From a virus, in IMG/VR virus record IMGVR_UViG_3300034032_000007, positions 1 through 46,628 of that record: 46,628 nucleotides of DNA. One strand, given 5' to 3'. The notes below the pieces were generated by a model that was given only the letters and a program-made list of their open reading frames with translations, had not been told where the DNA came from and did no database searches. The position numbers were made by a program, and so were the translations under genes. Shown here in pieces: positions 14,301 to 45,555 of this stretch; the first letter of the stretch is position 1; every line of letters starts with the position of its first letter.

Positions 14301-14460
14301 CCCGCAGACGGCTGGCAACCTGTTCGCAAGTTTCTCGCTGTCGTCGGGCACGTCCAATGCCGAGCGCCAAGCCACGTACCGCGTGGACGCAACCGACGCA
14401 CTTGGCACGCCGGCATCCTGCACGTTCACGGTCAATCTCGCGCGGAGCAATGAGCTGTGA
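11311..14460 (+). CDS. central tail fibre / host specificity protein (lambda gpJ-like)
   Basis: 1049 aa. The N-terminus GGGKSGGKPRTPIEAPDSLRSVSFARVLDLLSEGEV parallels lambda J. It has an FN3-like segment (YGIQWRKNNGPW) and two Ig-like C-terminal modules. Confidence 0.9.
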   Translation: MTIRGAGGGKSGGKPRTPIEAPDSLRSVSFARVLDLLSEGEVFGPVDPLHPLRCIYLNETPIENSDGTMNFKSVQVEIRTGTQVQDYIKGFESTENENPVNVEITSDQSWTQNFVNTDVDAVRIRLSTPSLYIINTENGDQTGHSFSYAIDMNVDGGGFVTKFESAVTGKTTSKYQRSHRVELPKFTTGVQLRVRRTSPSSNKSNISDGSFIDAFAELVDVKLRYPMSALVGLTLAAEQFSSVPSRAYHWKGRLIKVPINYNPETRQYTGLWNGTFKTAYSNNPAWAFYDMATNTRYGLGKRVPAAMVDKWTLYAIGQYCDELVPDGFGNMEPRFTCNMYLQTRNDATKTMQDMATVFRGMMYVAGGTLVPSCDKPADVRYHFAPANVIDGKFTYMGSSQKARHTLALVSWNDMSNFGRQKIEPVQADDAAIARFGIRQIEVAALGCTSRGQAHRLGKYILLTEQYETDTVTFDVGLEGNIPAPGDIIEIADPLRAGSRMGGRVLVSGLSTLTLDEVPDVVGNGDVFKVILPNGMPETRTITGFDLVANTVTLNAPLSAEPVRHAVWLIESASINAQTFRVLAVAEKPGIQFSITALQYVPSKFGAIELGLSIDEPPIGSNGDIPDAITGLRLTSFMRYGHNIAFNVLNADWENAKNASRYGIQWRKNNGPWTTPQKVTDSNFDFEGPFAGTYVCRVWGENFMGIPGPSVQSDPFVVTNAVMPARELSIGEGGVVDVDCNFVQFVLVLTQNVTRFNFINVGPQDSIIVDIRNTGNFTVNFGNKVIPIEGFQFTMPQGEGAFAVIGMTTMDAGVSWLLKTAAQTANDIYPPLIATINPSPASGTWSVPNSGPGAPSVQVAASAEGGDGTYSHEWFRVDGEGGDNFLISNAAVTNPTFSIPAGTTAYGGTQTWRYRVTDGLLAQGTADVSITLTRAVATPFGISTASSHSGSCFANAGQNVGCSPTTEVQIAVVGATYPITWSITRTDGLAQNVGQGVNPQTAGNLFASFSLSSGTSNAERQATYRVDATDALGTPASCTFTVNLARSNEL

Positions 14461-16739
14461 TCGGCTCCAACCACCGAATGTTCTTTACGCTGCTGGGCGG
14501 TGCTACCGCCATGCTGGCACTACCACCTACTGATGAGGAAGATACCGTGCGCAGCTTGGTTGACTTGGGATTGATGGAAAAGGTTTGGGAGTATCAGAAC
14601 CCCGGTGGCGAGCCAATCTATTCGTCGCCTATCGGCCCGGTCACGGTGTATGCCGGCAGCGGCGGCATCGCCAACCAAGCGCCGGCAGTGATGTTCACTT
14701 CCTGGGATTGGTACGTGTATGCGCTCGACGTACACACGGGTGCGCTAATGCAGCGCCAGCCGTTCAATCTCAACATCTACGGCCGCGTGCAGGTTGGTGA
14801 TGTCAACAACGACGGCTACAACGAAATCTTTGCGCCGTGCCATAGTGGTTTCATCCGCTCGATGAATTCCGACTTGACGTACCGTTGGGAGTTCTACAGC
14901 GTGTACGACCGTGAGGCAAACGGAGCGATCACGGGTGCGGGTGTCGATTCGTTCACCGACACGACTCGCAACTGGCCGACCAACACGTTCATGCGCCGCA
15001 CAACCGCGCCGTTTACGGTCAATGCTTACGTGCGCTTCCTGAGTGGGGCTAACGCATTCGTTCCGGGCACGGCCGATCCCAACACGGGCATTGCCCCCAC
15101 TGACCGGCATGTGGCGGCATGCAGCGGCAACAGCATCACTGTCTCGGAGCCCTGGGCAGTGCAGCCCGGTGCAGGCGATTCCTACATCGTTCTGCCGCGC
15201 TATACGTCGGACAAGATTTTCATGCACGCCGGTCAGTTGGTAAAGCTGTCATCTACGGATTGGCGTTTGTTCTGCACCGGCTTTGACAACATGGTGTATT
15301 GCCTTAACGCCAACACGGGTGCGCTCATCTGGCAGTACGCCACTCTTGAAAACATCGAGCCCTACCCGCTGGTGCTTTACAACGATGGCACCTTGCGCGT
15401 GTACGCGGTAAGCATCGACGGCAAGACCCGGTGCTTTGACGGCAACGACGGCACGCTGTTGTGGGAAGCGGACACGGGACAGTGCGACGCCTTCATCAAC
15501 GCCGTGGGTGAAGCGGGTGCGCTCGATACGGACGTTTACGTGTCGTCCCGCAGGGGTCGCGTGTATCGAGTGAACGCCAATTTCGGCACGCGCGAGGCGC
15601 AGTCAACGGAAACCCGAGCGTGGGATTACGGCGACATTGATTCGTCCGCGCTGCCATTCCAGTTGACGGGCACCACCAACGAAGCGGGCCGGCGCGTGGT
15701 GGTCGGTGGCGATTCGGGGTCGGTGTATTGCTTCGACAACAATCTCAACACGATGTGGGCTCAGCCTGCCGCGCCTACCGCGATCAATTCATCGCCGGTC
15801 ATCCACAACGTGACGGGCAAGAACAATGAGCTGGCGGTGCTTCTGGCCGACATGCGCGGCACCGTGCATTGCTATGACGTGGCCACTGGCAAGTCCATCG
15901 GCAAGCTGTACCACAAGGGTGGGATCGAGGGCTACCCGTACTACGGCGACATCGACGGTGATGGAAAGATCGAGCTGATCACCACGACAACGGACGGCAT
16001 CGTGACGTGCTGGCGCTTCCTGAAGGGCGCCGAGTACATCCACACGTCGAAGCCGGGCAATGATCGCTGGAAGGGGCACATTGCGGTGCCGGTCAGCAAC
16101 AATGATCCGCTCGCGGCATTCGTGGTGGCCGATCACGATTTCACGGGCTCACTGACGGCAGACGAAACAGGCAACACCTGGGCTATCGAAGGCACGCCCA
16201 CGCTTACTGCCAACGGCATGGAAGTATCGGGCGATGAAGGTGTAACGCTGAGCGTCCCAGGTCTTGAGTTGCCTATGGGTTCGTCTACCTTTGAAGTCGT
16301 GGTGCGCATTGATAGCTCCCACGCCGAGGACAGCCGACGCACCATCGGTCAGTTCGGTGAGCTGGGGTCCGGTCTGTCGTGGGTCATGCAGCGCCTGTTT
16401 GGCACGCATGTGTTTGAAATGAGTTCTGGCAGCGGTGGAATCAACGCGGGCGGCAACCGAACCATCCCCACGGGGTACACGCATCTTTGCATTCAGACCG
16501 AATCGGACGGCGGCGTTGGACAACTGGCGTGGCTGTACGTCAACGGCGTGCGCAGCATCAACAGCTTCAACCTGCAACCGTGGCACCGTGAAGTCAGTTT
16601 CCTCCGCTTGGGCTGGGCCACCTACAGCGACAACCCCGACAACAGCAGCAACATTGTGATCCGCCGTTTCCGTTACACGCGCGGCGCATTGCGGTATGCC
16701 ATCGGCGGCTTCACTGTCCCAGCCGACATGACCTATTGA
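14457..16739 (+). CDS. distal tail protein with PQQ/BamB-like beta-propeller, FG-GAP-like Ca-binding motifs and C-terminal LamG/concanavalin-like domain (putative receptor-binding protein)
   Basis: GTGA overlap with the J-like gene. About 7 blade repeats (VYALDVHTGAL, VYCLNANTGALIW, TRCFDGNDGTLLW, VYCFDNNLNTMW, VHCYDVATGKSI, VTCW). DxDxDG motifs (GDVNNDGYNEI, GDIDGDGKIEL). LamG-like C-terminal ~200 aa. The start is uncertain (GTG 14457, ATG 14478 or ATG 14511). Confidence 0.7.
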   Translation: MIGSNHRMFFTLLGGATAMLALPPTDEEDTVRSLVDLGLMEKVWEYQNPGGEPIYSSPIGPVTVYAGSGGIANQAPAVMFTSWDWYVYALDVHTGALMQRQPFNLNIYGRVQVGDVNNDGYNEIFAPCHSGFIRSMNSDLTYRWEFYSVYDREANGAITGAGVDSFTDTTRNWPTNTFMRRTTAPFTVNAYVRFLSGANAFVPGTADPNTGIAPTDRHVAACSGNSITVSEPWAVQPGAGDSYIVLPRYTSDKIFMHAGQLVKLSSTDWRLFCTGFDNMVYCLNANTGALIWQYATLENIEPYPLVLYNDGTLRVYAVSIDGKTRCFDGNDGTLLWEADTGQCDAFINAVGEAGALDTDVYVSSRRGRVYRVNANFGTREAQSTETRAWDYGDIDSSALPFQLTGTTNEAGRRVVVGGDSGSVYCFDNNLNTMWAQPAAPTAINSSPVIHNVTGKNNELAVLLADMRGTVHCYDVATGKSIGKLYHKGGIEGYPYYGDIDGDGKIELITTTTDGIVTCWRFLKGAEYIHTSKPGNDRWKGHIAVPVSNNDPLAAFVVADHDFTGSLTADETGNTWAIEGTPTLTANGMEVSGDEGVTLSVPGLELPMGSSTFEVVVRIDSSHAEDSRRTIGQFGELGSGLSWVMQRLFGTHVFEMSSGSGGINAGGNRTIPTGYTHLCIQTESDGGVGQLAWLYVNGVRSINSFNLQPWHREVSFLRLGWATYSDNPDNSSNIVIRRFRYTRGALRYAIGGFTVPADMTY

Positions 16740-16841
16740 CATCCACGCCCGCGTGGTTATAGTCGAACGCAGGTAAGCACGATATGTTCAACACCTAGCG
16801 CGACACACGCATAGTTGAACCGCTGCACGCAACCTCCATAC

Positions 16842-16871
16842 AACCCTGCCCTGACCGGCAGGGTTTTTCTT
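16842..16871 (+). terminator. rho-independent terminator ending the structural operon
   Basis: AACCCTGCC-ctgacc-GGCAGGGTT, with the T-run continuing as TTTTTCTTT. Confidence 0.8.
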
Positions 16872-16873
16872 TG

Positions 16874-16908
16874 GACAAAAAGAAACCCCGGATGGTAAGT
16901 CCGGGGTT
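16874..16908 (-). terminator. rho-independent terminator for the minus-strand HTH operon
   Basis: On the minus strand: AACCCCGGA-cttacca-TCCGGGGTT followed by TCTTTTTGT. It lies 59 nt downstream of the stop at 16967. Confidence 0.8.
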
Positions 16909-16966
16909 CCCACTTCCTAACGGGGGCGCGGCTGTCCAGGACCGCAAGCCGACATTAAAGCCGCTC

Positions 16967-17302
16967 TCAGTCCTTGTCAACACCGTACAACTGCTTGAGG
17001 CGGATGAGGTCACGCGGCGTGAGCTTCCAGCCGTCCTCGCGCGCTCCGTACAGGCGCAGTTCGGTGGCGTCGAAGCTGTCGAGCTTCATGGCTTCGATGA
17101 ATAGCTCAACCCGTTCTGGCACTATCGCGGCATTGTGGCGGTTGCGCATGAGCGTGCCGGCGTACAGCGGGGTCACACCCAGGATGCGCGAAAGATCGTT
17201 GTGGATGTCGAGCCCATGAAAGCGCAAATGCTCACGCATGATCGAGCGCACAGTACGCGGCCCGGTCGGCTCACTCATCGGTCGGCCTTGTCTGCGCCGC
17301 AT
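16967..17302 (-). CDS. XRE-type helix-turn-helix DNA-binding protein (regulator)
   Basis: 111 aa. The segment LSRILGVTPLYAGTLMRNRHNAAIVPERVELFIEAMKLD resembles a Cro/CI-type HTH. Its start overlaps the upstream stop (TGATG). An alternative start lies at Met9. Confidence 0.6.
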   Translation of the reverse strand: MRRRQGRPMSEPTGPRTVRSIMREHLRFHGLDIHNDLSRILGVTPLYAGTLMRNRHNAAIVPERVELFIEAMKLDSFDATELRLYGAREDGWKLTPRDLIRLKQLYGVDKD

Positions 17303-17496
17303 CAGGATTCTCCCGCAGCGCGTTCAAGTTCGCCAAGGAAGCGGAACGCCTCCATGCGAGTCATGTAGTGAGTGGTGCCACCCAATTCCACCTTTACCGT
17401 ATTGAAGGCCACGCGCGCGGCCTTGATATGCAAGGGGAGTGGTGGCGGTGGTAGTGGCGGCAAGCGCGGCGGCAGTGTTGGTGGTAGCATTGCCAC
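17302..17496 (-). CDS. small hypothetical protein (62-64 aa, Pro-rich N-terminus)
   Basis: GTG 17496 or ATG 17490. It is translationally coupled to the HTH gene, and a promoter-like element sits immediately upstream. No SD is present, so the transcript may be leaderless. Confidence 0.45.
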   Translation of the reverse strand: MAMLPPTLPPRLPPLPPPPLPLHIKAARVAFNTVKVELGGTTHYMTRMEAFRFLGELERAAGES

Positions 17497-17525
17497 AACT
17501 TAACCCCTGACGGAATTGGTGTCAA
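17497..17525 (-). promoter_or_regulatory. sigma70-like promoter TTGACA-N17-TAAGTT (minus strand)
   Basis: The -35 is at 17525..17520 and the -10 at 17502..17497. The -10 ends 6 nt before ATG 17490, which would place the transcription start at or next to the start codon. Confidence 0.4.
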
Positions 17526-17526
17526 C

Positions 17527-18066
17527 ATGCCCTACGCGACAATTACGATTGCCATGCTTACCCTCGTGGTGTATCTGATCGGCAACCCGCGCGCCATGTG
17601 GCTGTCGTCCGACTGGCACTATGGGTTTGAATTCATCACCTATGCGCTGTGCCACGGTGGCAAATTGCATCTGCTGGTGAACCTGCTGGCGCTCATATCG
17701 TTCGGGCCGGCACTGGAAAGACTGTGGGGCCACCGCGTGTTCCTGTTCTGCTATCTGCTGGCCGCTGCGTTCGGCGGCCTGTTGCAGATCAAGCTGCTAC
17801 CTGGGGTGCCGGTGATCGGCGCGAGCGCGGCGCTGCTGGCCCTTTTTGCCGCCTACGCGCTGCGCAAGCCGGATGCCAAGATCGTTAGCCTGTTTGTCGT
17901 GCCGCTGCCCGCATGGGCCGTGCTGGCGCTCTACGTCGGCGTGTCGATGGCAGCGATGTACTTCAACTGGATGCCCGAGGTCAGCCACATATCGCACCTT
18001 GGCGGCATCACCGTAGGCGTGGTGTTCCGCCTCATCGACGGCTATACGACAAAACCCCAAGCGTGA
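17527..18066 (+). CDS. rhomboid-family intramembrane serine protease
   Basis: 179 aa, about 6 TM segments. Motifs in canonical order: H-x4-H-x3-N (CHGGKLHLLVN), FGPALE, catalytic GxSxx (IGASAALLALF), and catalytic His in HLGGITVG. Confidence 0.85.
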   Translation: MPYATITIAMLTLVVYLIGNPRAMWLSSDWHYGFEFITYALCHGGKLHLLVNLLALISFGPALERLWGHRVFLFCYLLAAAFGGLLQIKLLPGVPVIGASAALLALFAAYALRKPDAKIVSLFVVPLPAWAVLALYVGVSMAAMYFNWMPEVSHISHLGGITVGVVFRLIDGYTTKPQA

Positions 18067-18081
18067 GCCTGGGGTTTCGGA
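18052..18081 (-). terminator. possible terminator of the minus-strand replication operon (hairpin spans the rhomboid stop codon)
   Basis: AAACCCCA-N10-TGGGGTTT. On the minus strand the stem is followed by TTTTGTCG. The stem is modest. Confidence 0.4.
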
Positions 18082-18127: not shown

Positions 18128-18520
18128 TCAGCCGCTTTCGGGGCGCAAGCGGTACTCATAGGTGTCGGCGTCGAACTTGTGCGGCGATGCGTAGCGGTGC
18201 GCCTCGTGCCAATCGCCAGCCAACTCAGGATGGTACTCGTTGGGTGTGCGCTCCCGGTACATGATGACCTTGCCTTCCTGATAGGCGTCGTACACATGGT
18301 CATAGACACGCTCCGGTTCGGGCTCCGGTTCGGCCGGCTGAGCGATGTTGACGCCGATGAACATATCCACGTCATCGGATACGATTACTGCACGAATGCC
18401 CTTGGCGGTCAGCAGTTGCATCACCCGCTCGACATGCTCAACAGACCACGGCTTGCGCGGTCGGAGGATGAGCGTTTCGCCTTCAGCAAGGGTGATGCGG
18501 TCCAGGTCGTTGATGTCCAT
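18128..18520 (-). CDS. hypothetical protein
   Basis: 130-aa ORF whose start overlaps the polymerase stop. It has an acidic PEPEPEPE linker and no recognised motif. Confidence 0.6.
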   Translation of the reverse strand: MDINDLDRITLAEGETLILRPRKPWSVEHVERVMQLLTAKGIRAVIVSDDVDMFIGVNIAQPAEPEPEPERVYDHVYDAYQEGKVIMYRERTPNEYHPELAGDWHEAHRYASPHKFDADTYEYRLRPESG

Positions 18521-20571
18521 TACTTCCTCTTTCGGTATTGGTTGCGTGAGATTTCAATGCATACGCTATGAGGGCTGACGCAATATGACCAATCTTCGTG
18601 TGCGTGCCCAACAATTAGCGTGTCAGTTTCATCGTGGTGCCAGTATCGCACCGGCACGCCGAGCGTTGCCAACATTTCCATCGCGTTGTTCTCATACTTC
18701 TGATAGTCAATGTCGCTGGGGAAGGCAAGCGGCAAGTCCATACACGGCATTGCACCGTCGCTGGTGGCCACCTTGTGCCCGTGCTTGTTGACGATGTGAC
18801 CGCCCTGCCATGCGGAGTAGTACCACCGCACCGCCTTGCCCAGCCACGCACCCTCATTGCCGTCCTTGTCGATAAAGGTTCCACCGCCAGTCACACCACG
18901 TAGCACGATGAACTTGCGGATGTCGCGGCACTGCTTGATGGTTTCGTCTATCGGCTTGCCATCTTTCAGGTAAGCCACGACGGCATCGGCGCAGATGTCC
19001 ATGTTTGGACCCTTGCCTTGCGGTCCTGCCAATACGCCGCTTTGTCCGAACGCACCCTTGCGCTTGACCTTGCCGTCCGTGCCGATGGCGATGTAATTGT
19101 TCACGTCGCGCTGCCAGATCGAGCTGTACGTAGTGGCTTCCATTTCCAGGCCGGTCTGTCGCTCCCACCACTTCACGATTTGATCGGCGATCATGTCGAA
19201 GCCGCGCGGGATTTTCAGCACGATGCCATCGGTGTTTGCGCTCAGCACTTCGATGCCGGATGCCTCCATCATTTCAATGAGCATCAGCAGCGCGAGCTGC
19301 CCGGTCAGCGTGGTGCGGATACCGAGTTCCGGCGCGAACAGAACGCTCCACTTGCTAAAGAGCTTTCCGAACGTGCCGTTCAACACAATCTTGAGCCCGT
19401 CACTTTCCGTGCCGAGGCGCTTGGATTCCTCCAACAGTTCCGCCGCGCCCATCGCCTTGTACAGATCACCGATGCGTGCTGATTCGGCCTTGGATGAAAG
19501 CCGGCGATCATAGATGCCACGGTAGATGCGCGAAAACGCCTCGCCCAACTGTTCCGGCACCATGCCCATCGTCAGGATAAGTGACGGGTAGTAGCTCTTA
19601 ACGTCGATGTCGCGGATGGTGAACGTGTCATCGGCGATGTAGTGCCGGCATTTTTCGGTGGAGTGCAAGCCACCGATACCCAGGCGGTACTTGCCGTTGC
19701 CGATGATGATGTCGCGCCCGCTCAGTGCTTCAGGGATATGCACGCCAGTGCGAATCTTAGGCGCGTTCTCATCCTCCGGGTCGTGGTAGCCGAGTGCCAC
19801 CGCTTCCTCTTTGTCGCGCACGATGAAGCGCGCAACCTGCACATCCGCCAGCAGTTGCTGCAACTGCGGCGACACGTACCGGATGTAACCGGGCGGTGTA
19901 TAACCGAACGTGAACTTGTCGGGGATGTATCGCTTGGCTGGCTTAAAGTCCAACTGCGCCTTGATCACCGCTTCCGCAATCTGTGCGTCCGATTTGCTAC
20001 GCACGTCGATGTTGTATCGCTCGCCGATGGCGATGCGAAGCTGGATGCGCTCCCAGATTTCCTTGCGCAACAGCCATGTGCCAACAAGGTCGTTGCCGCA
20101 GTAGTCAGCGATGACGAAGCGCGCGGTTGCATCGAGCGCGGTGGAGGGATCGTATGGCAAGTCCTGCAACTTGGGCGCGTGCAGGCGACCCATGTACATC
20201 TTGAGGCTGATGCGCACGCCTGGGCTGACTTCCATGATGTCTATGTGGTCAATGAACGCGAGCGGTTCTATCCCCCACTTTTTGTAGAAGTCCCACGGCT
20301 GCACGTTGCGCACGATGATGTCGTCGTTGGCTTCCTTCAGTTGCGCGGTGTCCGCGCCATAGAGCGCCAGCGTGATCATCTGCATGTCGTAATGATTGCC
20401 ATTGAACGTAACGATGGTTACGCGCGATAGCGTGTCGGTCAGACCTTGGATGTCCAGTGGCTGACCGGGCCACATGCCGTAGCTCGCATATTGATTGGTG
20501 GCACTGTCGTACAGCTTGCACAGCCAGTAGTCCGGGTAGCATTCGGTGTCGCATTCAACAAGCGGACGCAT
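18520..20571 (-). CDS. family B DNA polymerase with 3-5 exonuclease
   Basis: Exo I: ECDTE. Exo II: NGNHYD. Exo III: YCGNDLV. Pol A: DIDVKSYYPSLI. Pol B: KIVLNGTFGK. Pol C: SANTDGI. Start taken at ATG 20571 (MRPLVECDTE), which overlaps the upstream stop as TGATG; the track's longer start is rejected. Confidence 0.85.
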   Translation of the reverse strand: MRPLVECDTECYPDYWLCKLYDSATNQYASYGMWPGQPLDIQGLTDTLSRVTIVTFNGNHYDMQMITLALYGADTAQLKEANDDIIVRNVQPWDFYKKWGIEPLAFIDHIDIMEVSPGVRISLKMYMGRLHAPKLQDLPYDPSTALDATARFVIADYCGNDLVGTWLLRKEIWERIQLRIAIGERYNIDVRSKSDAQIAEAVIKAQLDFKPAKRYIPDKFTFGYTPPGYIRYVSPQLQQLLADVQVARFIVRDKEEAVALGYHDPEDENAPKIRTGVHIPEALSGRDIIIGNGKYRLGIGGLHSTEKCRHYIADDTFTIRDIDVKSYYPSLILTMGMVPEQLGEAFSRIYRGIYDRRLSSKAESARIGDLYKAMGAAELLEESKRLGTESDGLKIVLNGTFGKLFSKWSVLFAPELGIRTTLTGQLALLMLIEMMEASGIEVLSANTDGIVLKIPRGFDMIADQIVKWWERQTGLEMEATTYSSIWQRDVNNYIAIGTDGKVKRKGAFGQSGVLAGPQGKGPNMDICADAVVAYLKDGKPIDETIKQCRDIRKFIVLRGVTGGGTFIDKDGNEGAWLGKAVRWYYSAWQGGHIVNKHGHKVATSDGAMPCMDLPLAFPSDIDYQKYENNAMEMLATLGVPVRYWHHDETDTLIVGHAHEDWSYCVSPHSVCIEISRNQYRKRK

Positions 20572-20903
20572 CAGTAAAACTCCACGGCGTTGGGGCAATC
20601 TTTGATGGTGTATGTGATGGGTAAACCGACAACACCATCTTTGCCGTCGATGGATGAAATGGTGCAAGCGTTTGCCAGCATTTCACATTCCAATGCGAAC
20701 CTAACACCATAGCCGAGGCGGATACCTACAGCCGGCAGGATCGACTTTGAGTTGTGTTCTGCGAGCAGGGCGTGGAGTTGGGTTATCACGGGCGTTGGTG
20801 TATCCGCGTCGCCAAGATCGGAACGCGGCGTTTTCGGTGCTGTAACTGTATGGGACGGCAGTAACGGGAGCGCCACGTAAAAACGCCATGCGACCTGATG
20901 CAT
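20571..20903 (-). CDS. hypothetical protein
   Basis: ATG 20903 is preceded by GGAGG with a 6-nt spacer. 110 aa, coupled to the polymerase gene. Confidence 0.55.
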   Translation of the reverse strand: MHQVAWRFYVALPLLPSHTVTAPKTPRSDLGDADTPTPVITQLHALLAEHNSKSILPAVGIRLGYGVRFALECEMLANACTISSIDGKDGVVGLPITYTIKDCPNAVEFY

Positions 20904-24054: not shown

Positions 24055-24070
24055 GTGGCACGTTTGCCAC
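24055..24070. promoter_or_regulatory. palindrome GTGGCA-cgtt-TGCCAC (operator-like) in the divergent control region
   Basis: Read directly. It lies just downstream of the leftward -10 and overlaps the candidate rightward -35. Confidence 0.4.
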
Positions 24071-24077
24071 AGGACCG

Positions 24078-24106
24078 ACAATACGGTAGCTTTGAAATTG
24101 TGTCAA
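24078..24106 (-). promoter_or_regulatory. sigma70-like leftward promoter TTGACA-N17-TATTGT
   Basis: The -35 is at 24106..24101 and the -10 at 24083..24078 on the minus strand, about 40 nt upstream of ATG 24037. A weaker rightward candidate is TTGCCA(24064)-N17-TAGCTT(24087). Confidence 0.5.
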
Positions 24107-27708: not shown

Positions 27709-27737
27709 TTGACGCCCAAATAGAATTGTGGCAATTT
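27709..27737 (+). promoter_or_regulatory. possible promoter TTGACG-N17-CAATTT with TG extended -10
   Basis: Read directly after the terminator and upstream of ATG 27764. The -10 is weak but preceded by TGn. Confidence 0.35.
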
Positions 27738-35169: not shown

Positions 35170-35670
35170 ATGTTTATCGCAGCCGGTCACTCAAATAGCG
35201 ACCCTGGGGCGTACGCTTACGGACGTAGGGAAGCGGACATCGCTGTCGAGTTCAGGAACATGGTTTCGTTCTATCTCGCACAGAGCAACGTCAAGCACGA
35301 GGTTGACGGGAAGGAAACCGAGAACATGCCGCTGAGCGTTGCAGCCAAGCGAGCCCGGTTGCACAAGGTCAGCGTCGAGTTCCATTGCAACGCATCGAGC
35401 AACGTCACGGCGACCGGCGTGGAAGTGCTGTGCGCACCCAAGGACAACAAGCGTGCTGCCGCCATCTGCGAAGCGATCAGCAAGGCGCTGGGCATCCGCA
35501 ACCGGGGAGTCAAGCCAGAGAATTCAGGGCAGCATCATCGGCTGGCGTTCATCCAGTCGGGCGGCATGATCGTGGAGCTGTTTTTCATTACCAACCGGAG
35601 TGACCTGATAGCGTATGACGCACGCAAGTGGGTGGCCGCGCGCGAGGTCGCCCGATGCCTGCTAGACTGA
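35170..35670 (+). CDS. endolysin, N-acetylmuramoyl-L-alanine amidase (Amidase_3-like)
   Basis: SD AAGGAG. Pattern AAGHSNSDPGA...E...FHCNA...GVEV...VELFFITN is typical of zinc amidase_3 enzymes. It is the first gene of the lysis cassette. Confidence 0.8.
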   Translation: MFIAAGHSNSDPGAYAYGRREADIAVEFRNMVSFYLAQSNVKHEVDGKETENMPLSVAAKRARLHKVSVEFHCNASSNVTATGVEVLCAPKDNKRAAAICEAISKALGIRNRGVKPENSGQHHRLAFIQSGGMIVELFFITNRSDLIAYDARKWVAAREVARCLLD

Positions 35671-35692
35671 ACCTGAACGGAGCGGGAAGCCT

Positions 35693-36082
35693 ATGAGCCT
35701 TCAGAATGTCGGTAAGACCGTAGTGGGCGTTGGCTTGGCAGCACCCGCATTCGTAACCAACGAGCATATTGCTGCATTTGCTCTCTTTGTCGCCTGCCTG
35801 GGCGGCACCTATGCGTCTTTCGCATGGGGCGATCCCGTCGCGCCACGGTCCAAGTTTTTCAGGCTGTTCGTGTCGTGCGTCATCATGGGACTGGCTTTCA
35901 GCATCGTCACTACCGTAGTGGTCGAATGGTATTTCGATACGCTGGAACTGACTGTTGCGGCACGGTGTGGAATTGGTGCCATCGTTTCCTGCCTGACTCG
36001 CTTCATCATGCCCAAGGTCATCGGAGCTATAAGCGATGGCACTTGGAAAGAACTAATCCCCTTCTACGGACGCAAGCAATGA
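35693..36082 (+). CDS. holin-like membrane protein
   Basis: 129 aa with 3-4 hydrophobic helices and a charged C-terminus. It lies between the endolysin and the spanins. Confidence 0.55.
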   Translation: MSLQNVGKTVVGVGLAAPAFVTNEHIAAFALFVACLGGTYASFAWGDPVAPRSKFFRLFVSCVIMGLAFSIVTTVVVEWYFDTLELTVAARCGIGAIVSCLTRFIMPKVIGAISDGTWKELIPFYGRKQ

Positions 36083-36387
36083 CCGCAAATTGGATAACTC
36101 TCGGCGTGAGCGTCGTGGCGCTCGCATTCATCAGCCTCACGATGTTGCTGCGCGGCAACGACTTTCGCCGACGCAGTTTGAAAGATGGTCGGCTCGCTAC
36201 GCTGCGCCTGCTGGGTTTCGTACTGGCAGGGTTCTCGCCGTGGGGCATCGTCGGCTGGTGGTTTTTCCTGGGCCTGTTCCCATCACCCTTCATGGCCGCG
36301 TTCCTGACTGGCGTGGCCTTCGTGTTCTTTACTTCCCCGAACCTGCCGCCGTGGCACAAGTTCCTGACTGAAGGGAGCGATGCGTAA
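36079..36387 (+). CDS. second lysis-cassette membrane protein (holin/antiholin candidate)
   Basis: ATG 36079 overlaps the upstream stop (ATGA). 102 aa with 3 TM helices. It is the C-terminal part of track ORF 35824..36387. Confidence 0.5.
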   Translation: MTANWITLGVSVVALAFISLTMLLRGNDFRRRSLKDGRLATLRLLGFVLAGFSPWGIVGWWFFLGLFPSPFMAAFLTGVAFVFFTSPNLPPWHKFLTEGSDA

Positions 36388-36803
36388 TGGAACCGCTGAC
36401 GTTGCAAGCCAAGATCATCAGCGCGGTTGTCACCGCTGTTGTCATCGGGCTTCTGAGTGTGATGGCCTACAGCCAGATCAAGCAGATGCGCATGGCAGCG
36501 GCACAGAACGAGCAGCGCGGAGGGGTACTGGATGCAGCGTCAGCGGGAATTGCGGAGGGCTCGCGCGTTGACCGTTGGGCTGAGACACACAATGCCGGCG
36601 TGACTGCCGGCCGCGAAACCTTCCGCCAATCCAAGACCGAGGCAATCCGCAATGAACCTGAAACTGCTACCCGTGCTGATCGTCCTGTTCCTGCCAGCGT
36701 GCGTGACGCCTACCGTGCGCGACGACTCGCCCGCGAGCGACTTGGATGCGCTGAGGGCGAATGTGGCCAAGACCGCCAGCCCCACACTGCTACCAAACGG
36801 TAA
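36387..36803 (+). CDS. Rz: i-spanin (Rz-like)
   Basis: N-terminal TM anchor (IISAVVTAVVIGLLSVMAY) followed by a charged helical periplasmic domain. A lipoprotein ORF overlaps it in the +1 frame. Confidence 0.65.
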   Translation: MEPLTLQAKIISAVVTAVVIGLLSVMAYSQIKQMRMAAAQNEQRGGVLDAASAGIAEGSRVDRWAETHNAGVTAGRETFRQSKTEAIRNEPETATRADRPVPASVRDAYRARRLARERLGCAEGECGQDRQPHTATKR

Positions 36804-37005
36804 GGAATACTGCGCGGAGCTGGCACGCACCGAGGATGAGCAGGACGATTGCACGGGCGACCTGGAGGATGCGTTGTTCACTGCCAACCGCAAGGGTGAG
36901 CGCACCTTGCTGACAGTTGACGCATTTATCGAGCGGGAAAAGCTGCGGCGCAATCCGTGTTCGCGCTGGGAAAAGCTGACTCGCCGGGCCCGGTGCAAAC
37001 GCTGA
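36652..37005 (+). CDS. Rz1: o-spanin (Rz1-like outer-membrane lipoprotein), overlapped architecture
   Basis: Signal peptide plus lipobox: MNLKLLPVLIVLFLPAC. It starts inside the Rz-like gene in another frame and extends ~200 nt beyond it. At 117 aa it is large for an o-spanin. Confidence 0.6.
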   Translation: MNLKLLPVLIVLFLPACVTPTVRDDSPASDLDALRANVAKTASPTLLPNGKEYCAELARTEDEQDDCTGDLEDALFTANRKGERTLLTVDAFIEREKLRRNPCSRWEKLTRRARCKR

Positions 37006-40266: not shown

Positions 40267-40767
40267 ATGTCAAAACTAACTCCAATGATGGCAGCATTCG
40301 CCGCTGGCAAGGTTGCCGGCCTTACAAACCGCGATGCAGGGCTCCACGCCGGGTATTCCGAGAAGTGCGTGGAGCAAACTGCCACCAAACTGATGAAGCA
40401 TCCTGGGGTCAAGGCTGCGATCAAGGCGGGTACGCCGCGTGTGCGTAAGCCCAAGGGTGGCAAGGACGATTGGGACGGCGATGGTGCCGGCGAATCGGCC
40501 AAGGTGGACGCACTGGAAATGCCCAAGGCGAAGTACACATGCGCCAAGGAGTTCTTGACCGATGCGATGAACCACCCGCGCCTGCCCATCGCCGCGCGTG
40601 CCGATTACGCCAAGGCGCTGCTGCCGTATCAGCACGGCAAGGTCGGCGACGTGGGCAAAAAGGAAAACGCCAAGACGCGCGCCGAGAAAATCGCGGGTAA
40701 TGGTGGCAATGGCAAGCCGTCGAAGTTCCAGACGAAGGAAGCGCCGCAACTGAGGGTGGTCAGATAA
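40267..40767 (+). CDS. terS: terminase small subunit (Terminase_2-like)
   Basis: LTPMMAAFAAGKVAGLTNRDAGLHAGYSEKCVEQTATKLMKHPGVKAAI parallels the LTPKQ..F...Y...N...AA..AGYS...A...G..LL..P.V motif of small terminases. Confidence 0.8.
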   Translation: MSKLTPMMAAFAAGKVAGLTNRDAGLHAGYSEKCVEQTATKLMKHPGVKAAIKAGTPRVRKPKGGKDDWDGDGAGESAKVDALEMPKAKYTCAKEFLTDAMNHPRLPIAARADYAKALLPYQHGKVGDVGKKENAKTRAEKIAGNGGNGKPSKFQTKEAPQLRVVR

Positions 40768-40967: not shown

Positions 40968-41444
40968 ATGTCACTGCAAACCCGTATCAGCGCGTTGATC
41001 ACCGCCATTGGCGTTGACATCAAGACCCTCACGACCCGGATCGGCACGCTCGCCAACCTGACCACGACCGACAAGACCAACCTTGTCAGCGCAATCAACG
41101 AGGTCAAGGCATCGGTGGGCAGCGCCGGGGCCACGATCAACGACACGACGCCATCGGGCACGACGGTCTACTCGTCCAACAAGACGGATTCGCAGATCAC
41201 CGCAGCCATCACGGCGCTCATCAACGGCGCACCCGGTGCGCTCGATACGCTCAATGAGCTGGCCGTGGAACTGGCGGCGCAGGACAGCGTTTCAGACGGA
41301 CTCGTGACCGCCGTGGCCAACCGCGTGCGCTTCGACGCGCCGCAGACCTTGGACACGACGCAGCAGGCCCAGGCGTGTACCAACATCGGCGTGGGCAACC
41401 CCGAGGTCGATCTGGCCGCGCTGTACGTCACCGCCAAGGCGTAA
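40968..41444 (+). CDS. tail-fibre-like protein
   Basis: Fibre signatures LTTTDKTNLVSAINEV and GAPGALDTLNELAVELA. 158 aa. Confidence 0.65.
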   Translation: MSLQTRISALITAIGVDIKTLTTRIGTLANLTTTDKTNLVSAINEVKASVGSAGATINDTTPSGTTVYSSNKTDSQITAAITALINGAPGALDTLNELAVELAAQDSVSDGLVTAVANRVRFDAPQTLDTTQQAQACTNIGVGNPEVDLAALYVTAKA

Positions 41445-41447
41445 ACC

Positions 41448-42632
41448 ATGAGCCTTCAGACGCGACTTGCCGCGCTGATTACCCTAATCGGCGCGGACAT
41501 CAAGGCCCGTGCGCTCAAGGCCACGACGTTCGCGGGCTATGGCATCACGGGCGCGCAGACGCTAGACAGTCAACTGACGGTCGAGCCCGCCACGGGGCAA
41601 GGCTTGTTGATCGCTGCCGGCAACGGCGAGTTCAACTATTCGGGTCTGATTCTCTACAACAAGGCGTACACCCGGTATTGGTCTTTCATGCACCGCTCCG
41701 GTGGTGCCAGCGATGAAGGATCGTTCAAGGCTGAGTATTGGAACGGCACCACCTACAACACGTTCTTTGAGATAACGAAGCTGGGTGTAATGAAAGTGGG
41801 TCCGTCGCTTTCGACGGTCATCCACACCGGCAATCTCGGAACGGGTTTGTCATGGGACGGTGCGGCACTCAACGCCGTTGCATCGCCGACGCCCGCTGCC
41901 ACCCTGACGACTGCGCAAACGCTCGCGTGGAACGGCGACTATCAGGCTACCCAGGCCGCGAACCACACGCTGCCCACTGCGGCATCGGGTGACGTTGGCA
42001 AAACGATCTTTGTCACGTCCTACGCGGATGGCGTGGTGTTGCTTCGCGGCACCAACACCATCAACGACATCGGAGCCGGCAACGATCTGGGCTTGGACAA
42101 CGGCGATTCGGTCACGCTCATGGTGCGGTCGGCCGGCGTGCTGGAAGTCGTCAACCAAGGCACGCGCGGTGCCCCAGGTGGGCAGGCCAAGACGGCGATT
42201 GTGTTGGCATCCAACTTTTCGTCAATCAGTAGTGTACCCGCTGCCGTAACGGGCTGGACCTTTTATGCTGTTGCGGGGAAGAAATACCGCATCCAAGTTC
42301 TCGGTGCGTATCAAAGTGCCGCGACAACCACGGGTGGCGTCATCAAGTTGCTTGCCACTAACGGGGCCGCAGGTACGTTTGCCGGTCAAGCGTGGGGTGC
42401 CATTACGACTGCTGCGGCTGCAACGGAGTTGGGTATTGCCATAACCGCTATCGGGTCAACGCTGACTACGACCGGCGTAAGCGCGATCAACAGCCCGCAC
42501 TACATCGGCATGGATGTTGGCTTCGCTTGCACCACGTCCGGTGACATATCTGTTGGCTGGGCCACGGAAGTTGCCGCAAGCGCCTCGCAACTCAACGCGG
42601 GCTCCATGCTTATCATCGAGGAATTGCCGTAA
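41448..42632 (+). CDS. fibre-like protein sharing the N-terminal module of 40968..41444
   Basis: N-terminus MSLQTRLAALITLIGADIKA versus MSLQTRISALITAIGVDIKT in the preceding gene. 394 aa, Thr/Gly/Ala-rich and beta-rich in appearance. Confidence 0.55.
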   Translation: MSLQTRLAALITLIGADIKARALKATTFAGYGITGAQTLDSQLTVEPATGQGLLIAAGNGEFNYSGLILYNKAYTRYWSFMHRSGGASDEGSFKAEYWNGTTYNTFFEITKLGVMKVGPSLSTVIHTGNLGTGLSWDGAALNAVASPTPAATLTTAQTLAWNGDYQATQAANHTLPTAASGDVGKTIFVTSYADGVVLLRGTNTINDIGAGNDLGLDNGDSVTLMVRSAGVLEVVNQGTRGAPGGQAKTAIVLASNFSSISSVPAAVTGWTFYAVAGKKYRIQVLGAYQSAATTTGGVIKLLATNGAAGTFAGQAWGAITTAAAATELGIAITAIGSTLTTTGVSAINSPHYIGMDVGFACTTSGDISVGWATEVAASASQLNAGSMLIIEELP

Positions 42633-43330
42633 TGATCGTGCCTTTGGGCTCAACTATTGCGGGTGTACGTCGCCGCATCCACATTCTTACCGCGTCTAAT
42701 GCCGCGCTTGCGATCCCAACGTGGGCTCAAGGTGGCAAGGGGCTGATGCTGGTCACCGGCACTGGCGGTGGCGGTGGTGGCGGTAACGATGGCGCGTTCT
42801 CAGGGTCGGACGGTGGCAGTGGCGCGATGGCGTTTAACCATCCCATCCCGATTCCATCTGGCATCACGACTGCCAACATCGCTATTGGTGCAGGCGGCAC
42901 TGCGGCAACAAGCGGAAATTCCGGTGGTACAGGTGGCGCGTGTTCAATCACGCTAGGTTCTGTTGTTCCGCTCTTGTTGGGCGGCGGGAGTGGCGGTCCC
43001 TCTAGCAACTCACCGGGTACAGGCGGCACACCGCAAGTGTACGGCGCGAATTTCCTGGTCAACGCCGGCAGCGACACTACGGGCGTTACGACCTTGAACA
43101 TGGCCGCGGCCTTCCAAACGCTTGCCCGAGGCATACACGGCTACGCGAGCGCCAATTTGCAGCCGTATGGCATGAACGCCCGGATGGCAACGCCCTTTGG
43201 CGGCGCAAGCAATGGGGCGACTCCCGGCTCAGGATATGGTTACGGTGGAAAGGGGACTAGCAGTGGCGGCGGCGCGGCCTACGCGGGCGGTCCAGGCATG
43301 CTGATCATTGAATTCGTGGAGGGCTACTGA
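42632..43330 (+). CDS. glycine-rich fibre-associated protein
   Basis: TGTGGGGGGGNDGAFSGSDGGSG...IGAGGTAATSGNSGGTGG...GGPGMLIIEF resembles glycine-rich domains seen in phage fibre modules. The start overlaps the upstream stop. Confidence 0.55.
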   Translation: MIVPLGSTIAGVRRRIHILTASNAALAIPTWAQGGKGLMLVTGTGGGGGGGNDGAFSGSDGGSGAMAFNHPIPIPSGITTANIAIGAGGTAATSGNSGGTGGACSITLGSVVPLLLGGGSGGPSSNSPGTGGTPQVYGANFLVNAGSDTTGVTTLNMAAAFQTLARGIHGYASANLQPYGMNARMATPFGGASNGATPGSGYGYGGKGTSSGGGAAYAGGPGMLIIEFVEGY

Positions 43331-43767
43331 TGTCCAAGGTATTTGCCATCGTTGAAAGCGGCGTGGTCACCAACGTGATCAATGCCGAGTCGTGGCAGGG
43401 CGGCATCGACGTAACCAACGTGACGCCGCGTCCCGGTCCCGGCTGGACGTACAGCAACGGCGTGTTCACCGCGCCGGCTCCGGTGGTGCGTGAGCGTTTC
43501 AACGTACTCAAGGCCGAACTGCTGCGCGAAATGTCGCCTGCCGAGTACGCCACCTGGGAGAACATCGCCCACATCGCGCGCACCACCACGGCGACTCAGG
43601 CGCAGCGGCGTGCGCTCAAGGCGCTGGCCGTGTTCAACGCCTACCCGCCGATGTTCGACAAGCGCGATGGCTCTTTCAGCGGACTCAAGGCGATCTGGGT
43701 GGAAAATGGCATTGTTGCCACTGATGCGCGTGCAGATGCCATCATTACGGCGGCATTGACGGGGTAA
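43330..43767 (+). CDS. hypothetical protein (possible fibre assembly/chaperone by position)
   Basis: 145 aa. The N-terminus MSKVFAIVESGVVTNVI is a pattern common in small phage proteins next to fibre genes. Functional evidence is weak. Confidence 0.45.
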   Translation: MSKVFAIVESGVVTNVINAESWQGGIDVTNVTPRPGPGWTYSNGVFTAPAPVVRERFNVLKAELLREMSPAEYATWENIAHIARTTTATQAQRRALKALAVFNAYPPMFDKRDGSFSGLKAIWVENGIVATDARADAIITAALTG

Positions 43768-43773
43768 AACAGC

Positions 43774-45555
43774 GTGGCAGCACTAAAAATGTGGTCAACA
43801 GCGTGTCCCGACTGGGAAAAACGCATCGTAAAGGCGCAAACACTTATCCCGTTTGCGCCTTTATTCCATGAGAACGCCGTCGAAGCGTTGGAAGTTTTCG
43901 ACAATCTCAAGATGGTGGACGCGGCAAATTCGCCCCTTTTCGGGGACATTTGCCGTGAATGGACGCGCGAATTTGTCGCTCAAATCTTTGGCTCTTACGA
44001 AAATGAGACAGGTATTCGGCATATCACCGAATATTTCATGCTCATTTCCAAGAAAAACGGCAAATCCACCACTGCGGCGGGCATTATGCTCACTGCACTC
44101 ATTCTTAACTGGCGAATGGAGGCAGAATTCCTGATTCTGTCGCCGACCAAGGAAATTGCCGACAATTCGTTCAAGCCCGCTGCTGCGATGATCCGCGCGG
44201 ACGAAGAATTGAGCGATTTGTTCATGGTGCAGGACCATCTGCGCCAGATCACGCATCGAGTGACCGGCGCAACGCTCAAAGTAGTCGCTGCTGACAGCAA
44301 TACCGTGTCTGGCAAAAAGGCCGTGGGCGTGTTGGTCGATGAGCTGTGGCTATTCGGCAAGGATGCGAAGGCAGATGCCATGCTGATGGAGGCAACAGGC
44401 GGCATCGCATCGCGCCCCGAGGGCTTCATCATCTACCTGACGACGCAAAGCGATGACCCGCCTGCCGGCGTGTTCAAGACGAAGCTGGAATACGCACGCA
44501 ACGTGCGTGATGGACTCGTGGATGACCCGCAGTTCCTGCCAGTGATCTATGAATTCCCCAAGGCCATGATCAAGGCCAAGGCGTATTTGAAGCCTGAGAA
44601 CTTCTATGTCACCAATCCGAACCTGACGCGCGAAGGTTCCAACGATGGCAGCGTCAACGTTCATTACATCGAGCGTTTGCACCGTCAGGCGATGGAGGAA
44701 GGCGAGGAAAAGCAGCGCATCTTTTTCGCCAAGCATCTGAACGTCGAAATCGGGCTCAATCTGCGCGCGGATCGGTGGGCCGGGACCGAGTTCTGGGAAG
44801 CTGCGGCCGAATTGCCGCAAGTCAGCATCGACTACCTGATTGAACACTGCGAAGTGATCACCGCAGGCATCGACGGCGGCGGTCTTGACGACTTGCTAGG
44901 CATGGCAGCGGTCGGGCGCACCAAGGAGCCGCAGTGGGTCACCATCCCCGAGTACAACGATGAAGAAACGGGCGAGTTGATGCCCGAGCAGCGCGTGTAC
45001 ATCCGCCGATGGGTTGCGTGGATGCATGCATGGGCGCACAAGATCGTGCTGAAGCGCCGCATGGACATTGCCAGCCTGCTGCGCGATTACGCCAAGACGG
45101 GTCACGTCACCATCTGCCAGTACGCAGGCCAGGACACGGAACAAATCGGAAAATTGGTGGCCAAACTGGATCGCAGCGGCCTGCTTTATCAGGTGGGTTT
45201 CGATCCCGCTTGCCTTGGCGGGCTTCTGGATGCCATTATCCTTGAGAACGTGGACCCCGAAAAACTGGTAAAAGTCAATCAGGGGTACAAGCTGGCCGGC
45301 TCGATTCGCACTACTGAACGCAAGTTGTTTGAGCGCGTGTTGATACACGACGGAAATGCGATGTCGAATTGGGTGGTGGGGAACGCCAAGGTGGTACAGA
45401 GGGGCAACGGAACCTATGTCACCAAGCAGGTAAGCGGAACCGCAAAAATTGACCCGCTCATTGCACTGTTCAACGCGGTAGCACTGATGGAACTTAACCC
45501 CGATGCGCAATGTGCTACTGACGACATCGCATCCCAAATGGTGATAGCCGGCTAA
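43774..45555 (+). CDS. terL: terminase large subunit (Terminase_1-like)
   Basis: 593 aa. N-terminus WSTACPDWEKRIVKAQTLIP. Walker A-like ISKKNGKST and Walker B-like VLVDELW. The C-terminal nuclease region includes ITAGIDGGGLDD. The start is GTG 43774 or ATG 43789. Confidence 0.9.
   Translation: MAALKMWSTACPDWEKRIVKAQTLIPFAPLFHENAVEALEVFDNLKMVDAANSPLFGDICREWTREFVAQIFGSYENETGIRHITEYFMLISKKNGKSTTAAGIMLTALILNWRMEAEFLILSPTKEIADNSFKPAAAMIRADEELSDLFMVQDHLRQITHRVTGATLKVVAADSNTVSGKKAVGVLVDELWLFGKDAKADAMLMEATGGIASRPEGFIIYLTTQSDDPPAGVFKTKLEYARNVRDGLVDDPQFLPVIYEFPKAMIKAKAYLKPENFYVTNPNLTREGSNDGSVNVHYIERLHRQAMEEGEEKQRIFFAKHLNVEIGLNLRADRWAGTEFWEAAAELPQVSIDYLIEHCEVITAGIDGGGLDDLLGMAAVGRTKEPQWVTIPEYNDEETGELMPEQRVYIRRWVAWMHAWAHKIVLKRRMDIASLLRDYAKTGHVTICQYAGQDTEQIGKLVAKLDRSGLLYQVGFDPACLGGLLDAIILENVDPEKLVKVNQGYKLAGSIRTTERKLFERVLIHDGNAMSNWVVGNAKVVQRGNGTYVTKQVSGTAKIDPLIALFNAVALMELNPDAQCATDDIASQMVIAG

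Follow-up and report, generated by a model that had tools for sequence, protein, structure and literature searches.

A minimal rhomboid intramembrane protease predicted at a conserved accessory locus of uncultured siphoviruses

The physiological substrates of bacterial rhomboids, a family of intramembrane serine proteases, are known in only a handful of cases. Bacillus subtilis YqgP acts on MgtE. Two reports describe AarA of Providencia stuartii, which acts on TatA and activates it by trimming (PMC3712462), and GlpG and Rhom7 of Shigella, which place bacterial rhomboids in membrane-protein quality control (PMC7232013). AarA, GlpG/Rhom7 and YqgP are the only mechanistic paradigms for rhomboids of the bacterial type, and in these systems a transmembrane (TM) segment with N-out orientation is cut in order to activate or to remove the protein that carries it. 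Here we analyze a rhomboid gene carried by a virus, at positions 17,527 to 18,066 of IMG/VR record IMGVR_UViG_3300034032_000007; the whole record of 46,628 nucleotides is referred to below as the window. Judging by its sequence and a fold model, its product is predicted to be a rhomboid intramembrane serine protease reduced to six helices, in which none of the catalytic residues has been lost, and the gene occupies an equivalent slot in related phages.

An earlier sequence-only reading of the window had described an open reading frame (ORF) of 179 amino acids (aa) with the motifs CHGGKLHLLVN, GASAA and HLGG; ORF and motifs are present exactly as described, the motifs align to GlpG, and the identification as a rhomboid is borne out by profile search and structure prediction. 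The protein scores 90.2 bits against the Rhomboid profile PF01694 (gathering score 22.6, E = 1.8e-25), with 135 of 143 profile positions covered (5-139). It also matches PHROG 16931, a phage family with function unknown, at E = 1.7e-10, and its closest solved structure by sequence is Haemophilus influenzae GlpG (2nr9, E = 2e-8). In HMMER alignments H43, H48 and N52, G98 and S100, and H157, G160 and G164 land residue for residue on the catalytic positions of GlpG, which we take to be H145/H150/N154, G199/S201 and H254/G257/G261. All 13 clade members have H43, H48, N52, G98-A99-S100, H154, H157, G159, G160 and G164 without exception, and the catalytic Ser, the catalytic His, the HxxxN motif of the second helix (TM2) and the first Gly of TM6 are kept throughout the wider subfamily (78 of 78 members).

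The AlphaFold2 model, based on 13 homologues, has a mean predicted local distance difference test score (pLDDT) of 85.6 and a predicted TM-score (pTM) of 0.82. It places helices at residues 3-18, 46-67, 69-90, 98-113, 129-145 and 154-171, in addition to a short helix in loop 1 (L1). When the model was compared with the PDB using Foldseek, about 30 GlpG entries led the list at probability 1.0 (TM-score 0.71 for Escherichia coli GlpG, 5f5j), followed by iRhom and Derlin; each of the first 35 matches is either GlpG or iRhom. The protein begins two residues ahead of TM1 and stops about eight residues past TM6, and is thus a bare rhomboid core. The ATG at 17527 is taken as the true start because the relatives share the same beginning, MP(Y/R)(I/V/A)T. 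Basic residues are clustered at the C-terminus and in the loops TM2-3 and TM4-5, and by the positive-inside rule this distribution points to the canonical N-in/C-in topology, in which the active site would face the periplasm.

Comparison with the described rhomboids shows what is shared and what is not. The GlpG proteins of E. coli and H. influenzae (MEROPS S54; 2ic8, 2nr9, 5f5j) have the same six-TM core (TM-score 0.63-0.72); the TM2 HxxxN, TM4 Gx-Ser and TM6 HxxGxxxG motifs all align, and the phage protein has approximately the size of the crystallised GlpG core. However, identity is only 20-23%, and the phage protein is without the N-terminal cytoplasmic domain and has a shorter loop 1 with F-E for W-R, GASA for GLSG, and Leu for Tyr205. 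AarA and Rhom7 contain a seventh TM helix and YqgP carries additional domains, whereas the phage protein is the six-helix core; no TatA-like substrate was seen near the phage rhomboid, and nothing ties the phage enzyme to the substrates of AarA, Rhom7 or YqgP. The NCBIfam equivalog models for GlpG (NF008155 / TIGR04239) failed, with 24.6 bits against 335 and 17.7 against 250. The rhombosortase model TIGR03902 also failed (24.8 bits against a cut-off of 84, E = 1.7e-5), this match being weak and covering the whole core; rhombosortase has GlyGly-CTERM substrates, whereas the ORFs of the window include no GlyGly-CTERM-like tail and no C-terminal TM anchor. By these profile scores the protein is a rhomboid outside both named subfamilies. 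Its nearest named cellular relative is WP_186019631.1 of Burkholderia gladioli (P0026, 189 aa), which scores 134 bits against the clade profile at 33% identity. Like the phage clade, this protein has the short architecture and the WQ / GAS(G/A) / HLGG motifs of short proteobacterial W-Q rhomboids; unlike the phage copies, it is encoded in chromosomal surroundings of stress genes (Usp, HSP20, CBS, BON) with no phage genes.

In a collection of 5.8 billion proteins we found 12 relatives of 176-204 aa with 42-56% identity. A profile search of 1.84 billion cluster representatives gave about seven clusters at 159-282 bits, below which lies a continuum of ordinary rhomboids (12,388 matches at E<1e-10). 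Genomic context could be seen for seven relatives (P0005, P0006, P0008, P0009, P0011, P0012 and P0022), and all seven are encoded on phage contigs of the same type that come from different samples. The sequence-only reading had suggested a survey of related phages for the same insertion, and the same slot is indeed filled in these seven contigs: counting the window, eight phage contigs carry the rhomboid (40-56% identical to that of the window) between the tail-J module and a convergent DNA-polymerase operon. Rhomboid identity to the window is 48-53% where polymerase identity is 64-70%, and 40% where polymerase identity is 57%. The fact that the one follows the other argues for vertical descent, which fits inheritance at one locus within a small phage-specific clade. 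The gene is no recent pick-up. Its GC content at the three codon positions (0.61/0.42/0.81) is inside the range of its neighbors, so its composition is not foreign. The pairwise ratio of nonsynonymous to synonymous substitution rates (dN/dS) is 0.15-0.6, below 1 for all pairs, and is to be read only qualitatively because dS is saturated.

Two more distantly related IMG/VR contigs are without the gene. In one (L060, polymerase 49% identical) the polymerase operon meets the end of tail J with about 300 bp between ORF ends, and the other (L059, polymerase 56% identical) has a convergent junction with no rhomboid; the gene is therefore considered accessory, gained or kept in one sub-lineage. In a neighbor-joining tree the main clade of 18 sequences stands together, and the rhomboid of locus L071 (P0022) falls outside it, among cellular-type sequences, so the tree does not establish that the phage copies taken together are strictly monophyletic. 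A scan of IMG/VR for the rhomboid clade gave no relatives, and a scan of GTDB with the rhomboid pattern gave distant cellular rhomboids only, with no prophage copies and no pointer to a host. The nearest cellular homologues are approximately 33-42% identical.

Gene content beside the rhomboid differs between loci. In L071 (5401-9466), a more distant relative, the rhomboid is inside the tail operon, in the order J, 95-aa gene, rhomboid, 109-aa gene and a 963-aa collagen-like fibre with GPxG repeats. The accessory slot by the rhomboid holds unrelated small membrane or exported proteins in the relatives, none of them common to the window. They include signal-anchored proteins, some with an AxA-like site (L001 7870-8217, L002 9180-9668 and L066 5691-6152), and 56-59-aa proteins with an N-terminal, N-out TM segment (L003 8505-8675 and L068 3795-3974). 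Such small membrane proteins are typical candidates for exclusion functions.

Among phages, rhomboids are very rare. We searched 50,697 phage records by tblastn with three queries, namely the E. coli GlpG core, a rhomboid of general bacterial type and the protein of the window, and together these found rhomboid homologues in about a dozen records. Two of the records are huge phages of 630-640 kb and several are short faecal contigs; several others, INPHARED "phage" matches to GlpG, were rejected as host fragments or bacterial contigs filed as phage. A match in Ralstonia phage YO382_2 was set aside as uninformative, the record being unverified and the gene lying 1 kb from its end. A library of predicted viral protein structures added a few more rhomboid-like proteins from uncultured tailed phages and giant viruses. 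Additionally, Stenotrophomonas phage DLP5, which is temperate, has a "rhomboid membrane protein" named as one of its morons in a single line of its genome announcement (PMC5834331); DLP5 was not detected by tblastn with the three queries. These other genes (PHROG 16931; A0A8S5Q3G3 from Siphoviridae sp., A0A6J5NSS0 and A0A8S5QAB7; the huge phages LR756502 and LR745206; DLP5) resemble the window protein by profile (E = 1.7e-10), by fold (TM-score 0.59-0.72) or by weak tblastn matches (26-32% identity). None of them is at this locus or in this phage group, and all are unstudied. Because they are only distantly related, we regard them as independent acquisitions.

The gene is phage-encoded, as the sequence-only reading had it. 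Profile matches of the ORFs assign head, tail, lysis, replication and packaging modules to the window. Positions 1-127 are identical to 46502-46628, and the portal ORF is split across this junction, so the contig, at about 46.5 kb, is complete and circularly assembled. The same genome was recovered from the assembly of a second, independent run with a different start point and identical gene order. The virus is a siphovirus with a complete genome. No integrase, repressor or partition protein was matched among the window ORFs of at least 200 aa, and pattern scans of GTDB genomes with polymerase and rhomboid found no integrated relatives, the polymerase pattern matching nothing; on these grounds the phage is probably virulent. 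The nearest cultured phages by DNA polymerase have no rhomboid and are, we assume, lytic-type siphophages. A megablast of 12 kb of the window against INPHARED gave only chance-size matches of 37-41 nt, Rfam and tRNA scans of the window gave no matches, and its GC profile is flat. NCBI places the contig within a bacterial metagenome-assembled genome (MAG), where the protein is named [quoted passage not shown]. The NCBI record thus already assigns the enzyme family; what it misses is the phage context.

The region between the rhomboid and a divergent small gene, which we call PPLP, is taken up by a conserved palindromic promoter-like element. In the window the two arms are slightly degenerate (left, TTGCCACAACT, 17490-17500, plus strand; right, TTGACACCAAT, 17525-17515, minus strand). 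An alignment of five phages shows an invariant TTGACACAATT(T)-N11-14-AATTGTGTCAAC inside otherwise diverged DNA, and in L001 the arms are perfect 13-mers with 100% complementarity. Each arm has a -35 consensus hexamer, and the AATT end overlaps the -10 position of the promoter on the opposite strand; in L001 and L066 the -10 is TAGAAT at a spacing of 16 nt. Owing to this arrangement, the element can be read as two fully overlapping back-to-back promoters for the rhomboid and the PPLP gene. The sequence-only reading had placed the rhomboid start against the -35 of a divergent promoter. TTGACA does lie at 17525-17520 on the minus strand, 1 nt from the ATG, and comparison gives it a meaning as one arm of the conserved element; the promoter itself is not called by a generic sigma-70 scan.

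The TTGACACAATT 11-mer occurs again in the window at 27709-27734 and 24063-24106, and in the equivalent divergent regions of relatives, including those without a rhomboid (L060 3150-3173, L059 approximately 2550-2591). Further sites are found in L001 (9943-9982) and in L066 (6178-6213 and 7946-7981). It is present mostly as an inverted pair with an arm spacing of 2-22 nt, and since this spacing varies, a promoter-type unit is favored over an operator of fixed geometry. The motif looks like a lineage-wide signature of early promoters or of regulator binding. That the replication-operon promoter shares it suggests that host RNA polymerase transcribes the rhomboid together with genes of the early or replication class. 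A TTGACA-containing palindrome is located immediately upstream of the rhomboid in six of the eight loci, and L068 has a TTGACA-17-TAGATT site. Coordinates of the features are collected in Table 1.

Table 1. Features of the rhomboid locus and of the phage genome (window coordinates).
Feature	Position	Strand	Description
Rhomboid intramembrane serine protease gene	17527..18066	+	ATG start, 179 aa, bare six-TM core
TM2 motif H43-x4-H48-x3-N52	17653..17682	+	Within C42-H43-G-G-K-L-H48-L-L-V-N52 (17650-17682); predicted oxyanion-hole residues
G98-A99-S100	17818..17826	+	Predicted catalytic serine, TM4; followed by A-A (17818-17832)
H157-L-G-G160-I-T-V-G164	17995..18018	+	Predicted catalytic histidine and GxxxG, TM6; H157-L-G-G at 17995-18006
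Conserved palindromic promoter-like element	17490..17525		Between rhomboid and PPLP gene
Divergent PPLP small gene	17302..17490	-	62-64 aa; Pro-rich N-terminus MLPPTLPPRLPPLPPPPLP, C-terminal xFRxIGELER helix, no TM
111-aa gene	16967..17302	-	Second in leftward unit; phrog_26100 (function unknown)
Terminator-like hairpin	16881..16911	-	Closes the leftward PPLP-p111 unit; 12-pair stem, then T run
Hairpin at convergent junction	18053..18076	both	Rhomboid stop codon (18064-18066) in loop
Convergent downstream operon	18128..20571	-	130-aa conserved protein (18128-18520) and DNA polymerase (phrog_1252)
Replication-operon promoter-like site	24078..24106	-	TTGACA-17-TATTGT, -35 within exact TTGACACAATT motif
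Head/connector module			Head protease, major head protein, head-tail adaptor
Tail module			Major tail protein, 969-aa tape measure, M/L/K/I-like tail-tip proteins, 1049-aa J-like fibre
Replication module			DNA polymerase, gp2.5-like single-stranded DNA-binding protein, DUF2800 exonuclease, helicase, methyltransferase, primase
Lysis cassette	35170-37005		Endolysin / holin-like / Rz / Rz1
Packaging	40267-40767; 43774-45555		TerS; TerL

The rhomboid is a lone plus-strand gene amid minus-strand genes on both sides, as had been noted from the sequence, and is one of the two halves of a compact module, about 1.2 kb long, with a hairpin at each end. The earlier description of its placement as moron-like stands only in part. 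In its favor are a promoter-like element and a hairpin terminator that belong to the gene alone, and the absence of the gene from L060 and L059; against it are a composition that is not foreign and an inheritance that appears vertical. The PPLP gene is conserved, facing away from the rhomboid, in five loci out of eight (window, L001, L002, L003 and L066), and no other neighbor recurs. Its product has no Pfam, PHROG or PADLOC match, and public gene callers skip the gene in this genome. The N-terminus of the protein includes PPPP, and the question may be posed whether PPLP is a regulator, a case of translation dependent on elongation factor P (EF-P), or a partner of the rhomboid. The 111-aa gene that follows it has no homologue in the related loci. 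Downstream of the rhomboid, the minus strand of 18053-18076 reads as a 13-pair stem and then UUUUGU (-41.9 kcal/mol and z = -3.1 in its 95-nt context; z = -2.4 for the plus strand). This order of stem and UUUUGU means that the hairpin could also end the incoming replication operon, and the element is terminator-like in both directions. The minus-strand DNA polymerase ORF of that operon has alternative starts, a TTG at 20667 (715 aa) or 20571 (683 aa, the choice of public gene callers); the longer 715-aa form would overlap the upstream 110-aa gene.

Three other regions of the window are of interest in their own right. Directly after the J-like fibre there is a 760-aa beta-propeller protein with PQQ_2 / FG-GAP-like repeats (14457-16739, plus strand), which has no homologue in the seven related loci; these have other distal genes there, and the protein is probably a swapped receptor-binding module. 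Right after this tail-gene stop (16736-16865, plus strand) we observed a promoter-like site, TTGACA-16-TATAGT, with 11 of 12 consensus positions and, about 80 nt past it, a 9-pair terminator hairpin with a T run. The region has no Rfam match and could give a transcript of about 100 nt, a candidate for a small RNA or a small peptide. The terminase genes TerS and TerL are separated by four genes (40968-43767, plus strand), which is an unusual insertion site: one encodes a 158-aa protein with tail-fibre-like PHROG matches, and those of 394, 232 and 145 aa have no matches.

We consider it very likely that the protein is an active rhomboid protease used during phage infection. We propose that the gene would be expressed as its own transcription unit, from a TTGACA-type promoter that overlaps the PPLP promoter, by host RNA polymerase early or midway in infection. 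The protein would be inserted into the host inner membrane in the N-in/C-in orientation, with the Ser100-His157 dyad open to the periplasmic side, and would cleave a membrane protein of the single-pass, N-out type within its transmembrane segment. As the most likely target we see an inner-membrane protein of the host, or else a component that an incoming competitor phage inserts into the membrane. Such cleavage would protect the infected cell, either by excluding superinfecting phages or because a defence effector that acts on the membrane is disarmed. To this best explanation as a whole, namely an active protease in the host inner membrane that cuts a membrane protein of the host or of an incoming phage during lytic infection, we give an even chance.

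Regarding the direction of the activity, we lean slightly toward the host or a competitor and away from the phage itself. Such a target is favored because the gene lies where the host-recognition genes end, in a variable accessory slot that holds small exported or anchored proteins in relatives, because its promoter motif is of the early/replication class, because the lysis cassette is 17 kb away, and because no phage membrane protein co-occurs with the rhomboid. Each named role, taken singly, is doubtful. This includes the tentative suggestion that the protease is an early-made weapon in membrane conflicts, which would cut membrane-embedded effectors or sensors of host immunity or the entry machinery of competing phages (a host channel protein or an inserted tape-measure/pilot protein). 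The ends of siphophage tail modules are known to hold exclusion genes, such as llp of T5, cor of T1/phi80 and gp15 of HK97. By analogy, these occupy the same position after the host-recognition genes, are autonomously expressed and have membrane-located products. They differ from the rhomboid in that the products are lipoproteins or small inner-membrane proteins, unrelated to it, which act by binding and without proteolysis.

Several observations weigh against this reading. The loop-1 W-R motif, which matters for the stability of GlpG, is replaced by F-E in the window protein, and of the 78 closest relatives nearly all have W-Q; by this comparison its loss is a trait of the subfamily and no phage peculiarity. 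The -10 hexamers of the window are weak, and the sigma-70 scan calls no promoter at 17490-17525. The leader of 13-25 nt with a Shine-Dalgarno sequence that is present in four related phages has been deleted, and the palindrome ends 1 nt ahead of the rhomboid ATG. The rhomboid mRNA may therefore be leaderless in the window, and the same may hold for L068, where the promoter-to-ATG spacing is similar; the weak -10 and the lost leader leave the level of expression uncertain. In L071 the rhomboid overlaps the upstream gene of the tail operon by 4 bp, and this position points to late expression there, so that the timing may differ between lineages. No consistently co-occurring membrane protein adjoins the rhomboid, the accessory genes being different from locus to locus, and PADLOC gave no matches for the rhomboid and nine neighbors without assigned function. 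The host label "Allosphingosinicella" is merely the name of a MAG bin. Finally, our literature search found no functional study of any phage rhomboid, which leaves every role without precedent; the sequence-only reading knew of no established role either, and the sole mention found is that of DLP5 (PMC5834331).

The main rival to a protease directed at the host or a competitor is that the rhomboid processes a membrane protein of the phage, whether a holin or antiholin, another lysis-cassette protein, or a tail or ejection protein, and in this way sets the timing of lysis or matures a part of the virion or of the ejection apparatus. This is kept alive by the late-operon arrangement of L071 and L068, where the rhomboid is co-oriented with late tail genes and, in L071, translationally coupled to them. 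The window also encodes a spanin pair and holin-like multi-TM proteins (35693-36082, and an ORF of about 101 aa starting MTANWITLG upstream of 36387, whose first TM segment is predicted to be N-out), and the activation of TatA through trimming by AarA provides a precedent (PMC3712462). We nevertheless consider it unlikely, given that 17 kb separate the rhomboid from the lysis cassette, which it adjoins in no case, that its promoter motif is common to the replication operon and not to the structural or lysis genes, that L060 and L059 retain the same tail and replication genes without a rhomboid, and that none of the phage proteins was seen to be TatA-like, to have a GlyGly-CTERM or to be anchored at its C-terminus.

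It is less probable still that the phage is temperate and the gene a moron for lysogenic conversion, which the prophage would express for the benefit of the host in membrane-protein quality control or Tat activation. No integrase, repressor or partition gene was detected among the larger ORFs, the genome was assembled twice as a free circle, scans of GTDB with polymerase or rhomboid patterns gave no prophage relatives, and the nearest cultured phages by polymerase carry no rhomboid. What speaks for this alternative is the moron-like anatomy with promoter and terminator, the listing of a rhomboid among the morons of temperate DLP5 (PMC5834331), and the quality control performed by bacterial rhomboids (PMC7232013).

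A non-proteolytic role like that of derlins and iRhoms, by membrane thinning or scaffolding or by binding and dislocating a membrane protein, would agree with the loss of the loop-1 WR motif and with the presence of iRhom and Derlin, in which the fold is used non-catalytically, among the weaker fold matches (ranks 17 and 35-40). Known rhomboid pseudoproteases, however, have lost catalytic residues. In the clade no member departs from the Ser, His, His and Asn, and in the subfamily 78 of 78 members keep them, which makes a non-catalytic role quite improbable. Finally, that this is no functional phage gene but a bacterial one brought in by mis-assembly or mis-binning, or a decaying passenger, deserves hardly any credence: the contig is filed in a bacterial MAG and the protein is named after Allosphingosinicella, but the gene order is identical in two independent assemblies, the slot is filled in seven other phage contigs, codon composition fits the genome, catalytic residues are intact, dN/dS is below 1 and cellular homologues are at most approximately 33-42% identical, and synteny across eight contigs excludes an artefact of assembly or binning.

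The locus described here combines a known enzyme family with a rare phage setting, a well-defined conserved location and a regulatory element. Its practical value is limited for now, as the phage is uncultured and other phages already have annotated, though unstudied, rhomboid-like genes. Phages have little room for idle genes, and the fact that an intact rhomboid is kept at one locus, through approximately 50% sequence divergence in a lytic-looking lineage, implies a specific and selectable cleavage at the host inner membrane during infection. Identification of the substrate would reveal a new phage manipulation of the envelope, be it exclusion, anti-defence, host takeover or lysis control, and would give the rhomboid field a function tied to a sharp phenotype. 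The importance of the finding would rise sharply if the enzyme cuts a host defence or entry protein. If the protease is indeed a weapon in membrane conflicts, intramembrane proteolysis would for the first time be seen to serve anti-defence or superinfection exclusion in bacteria, and the enzyme would offer a natural handle on how rhomboids choose their substrates.

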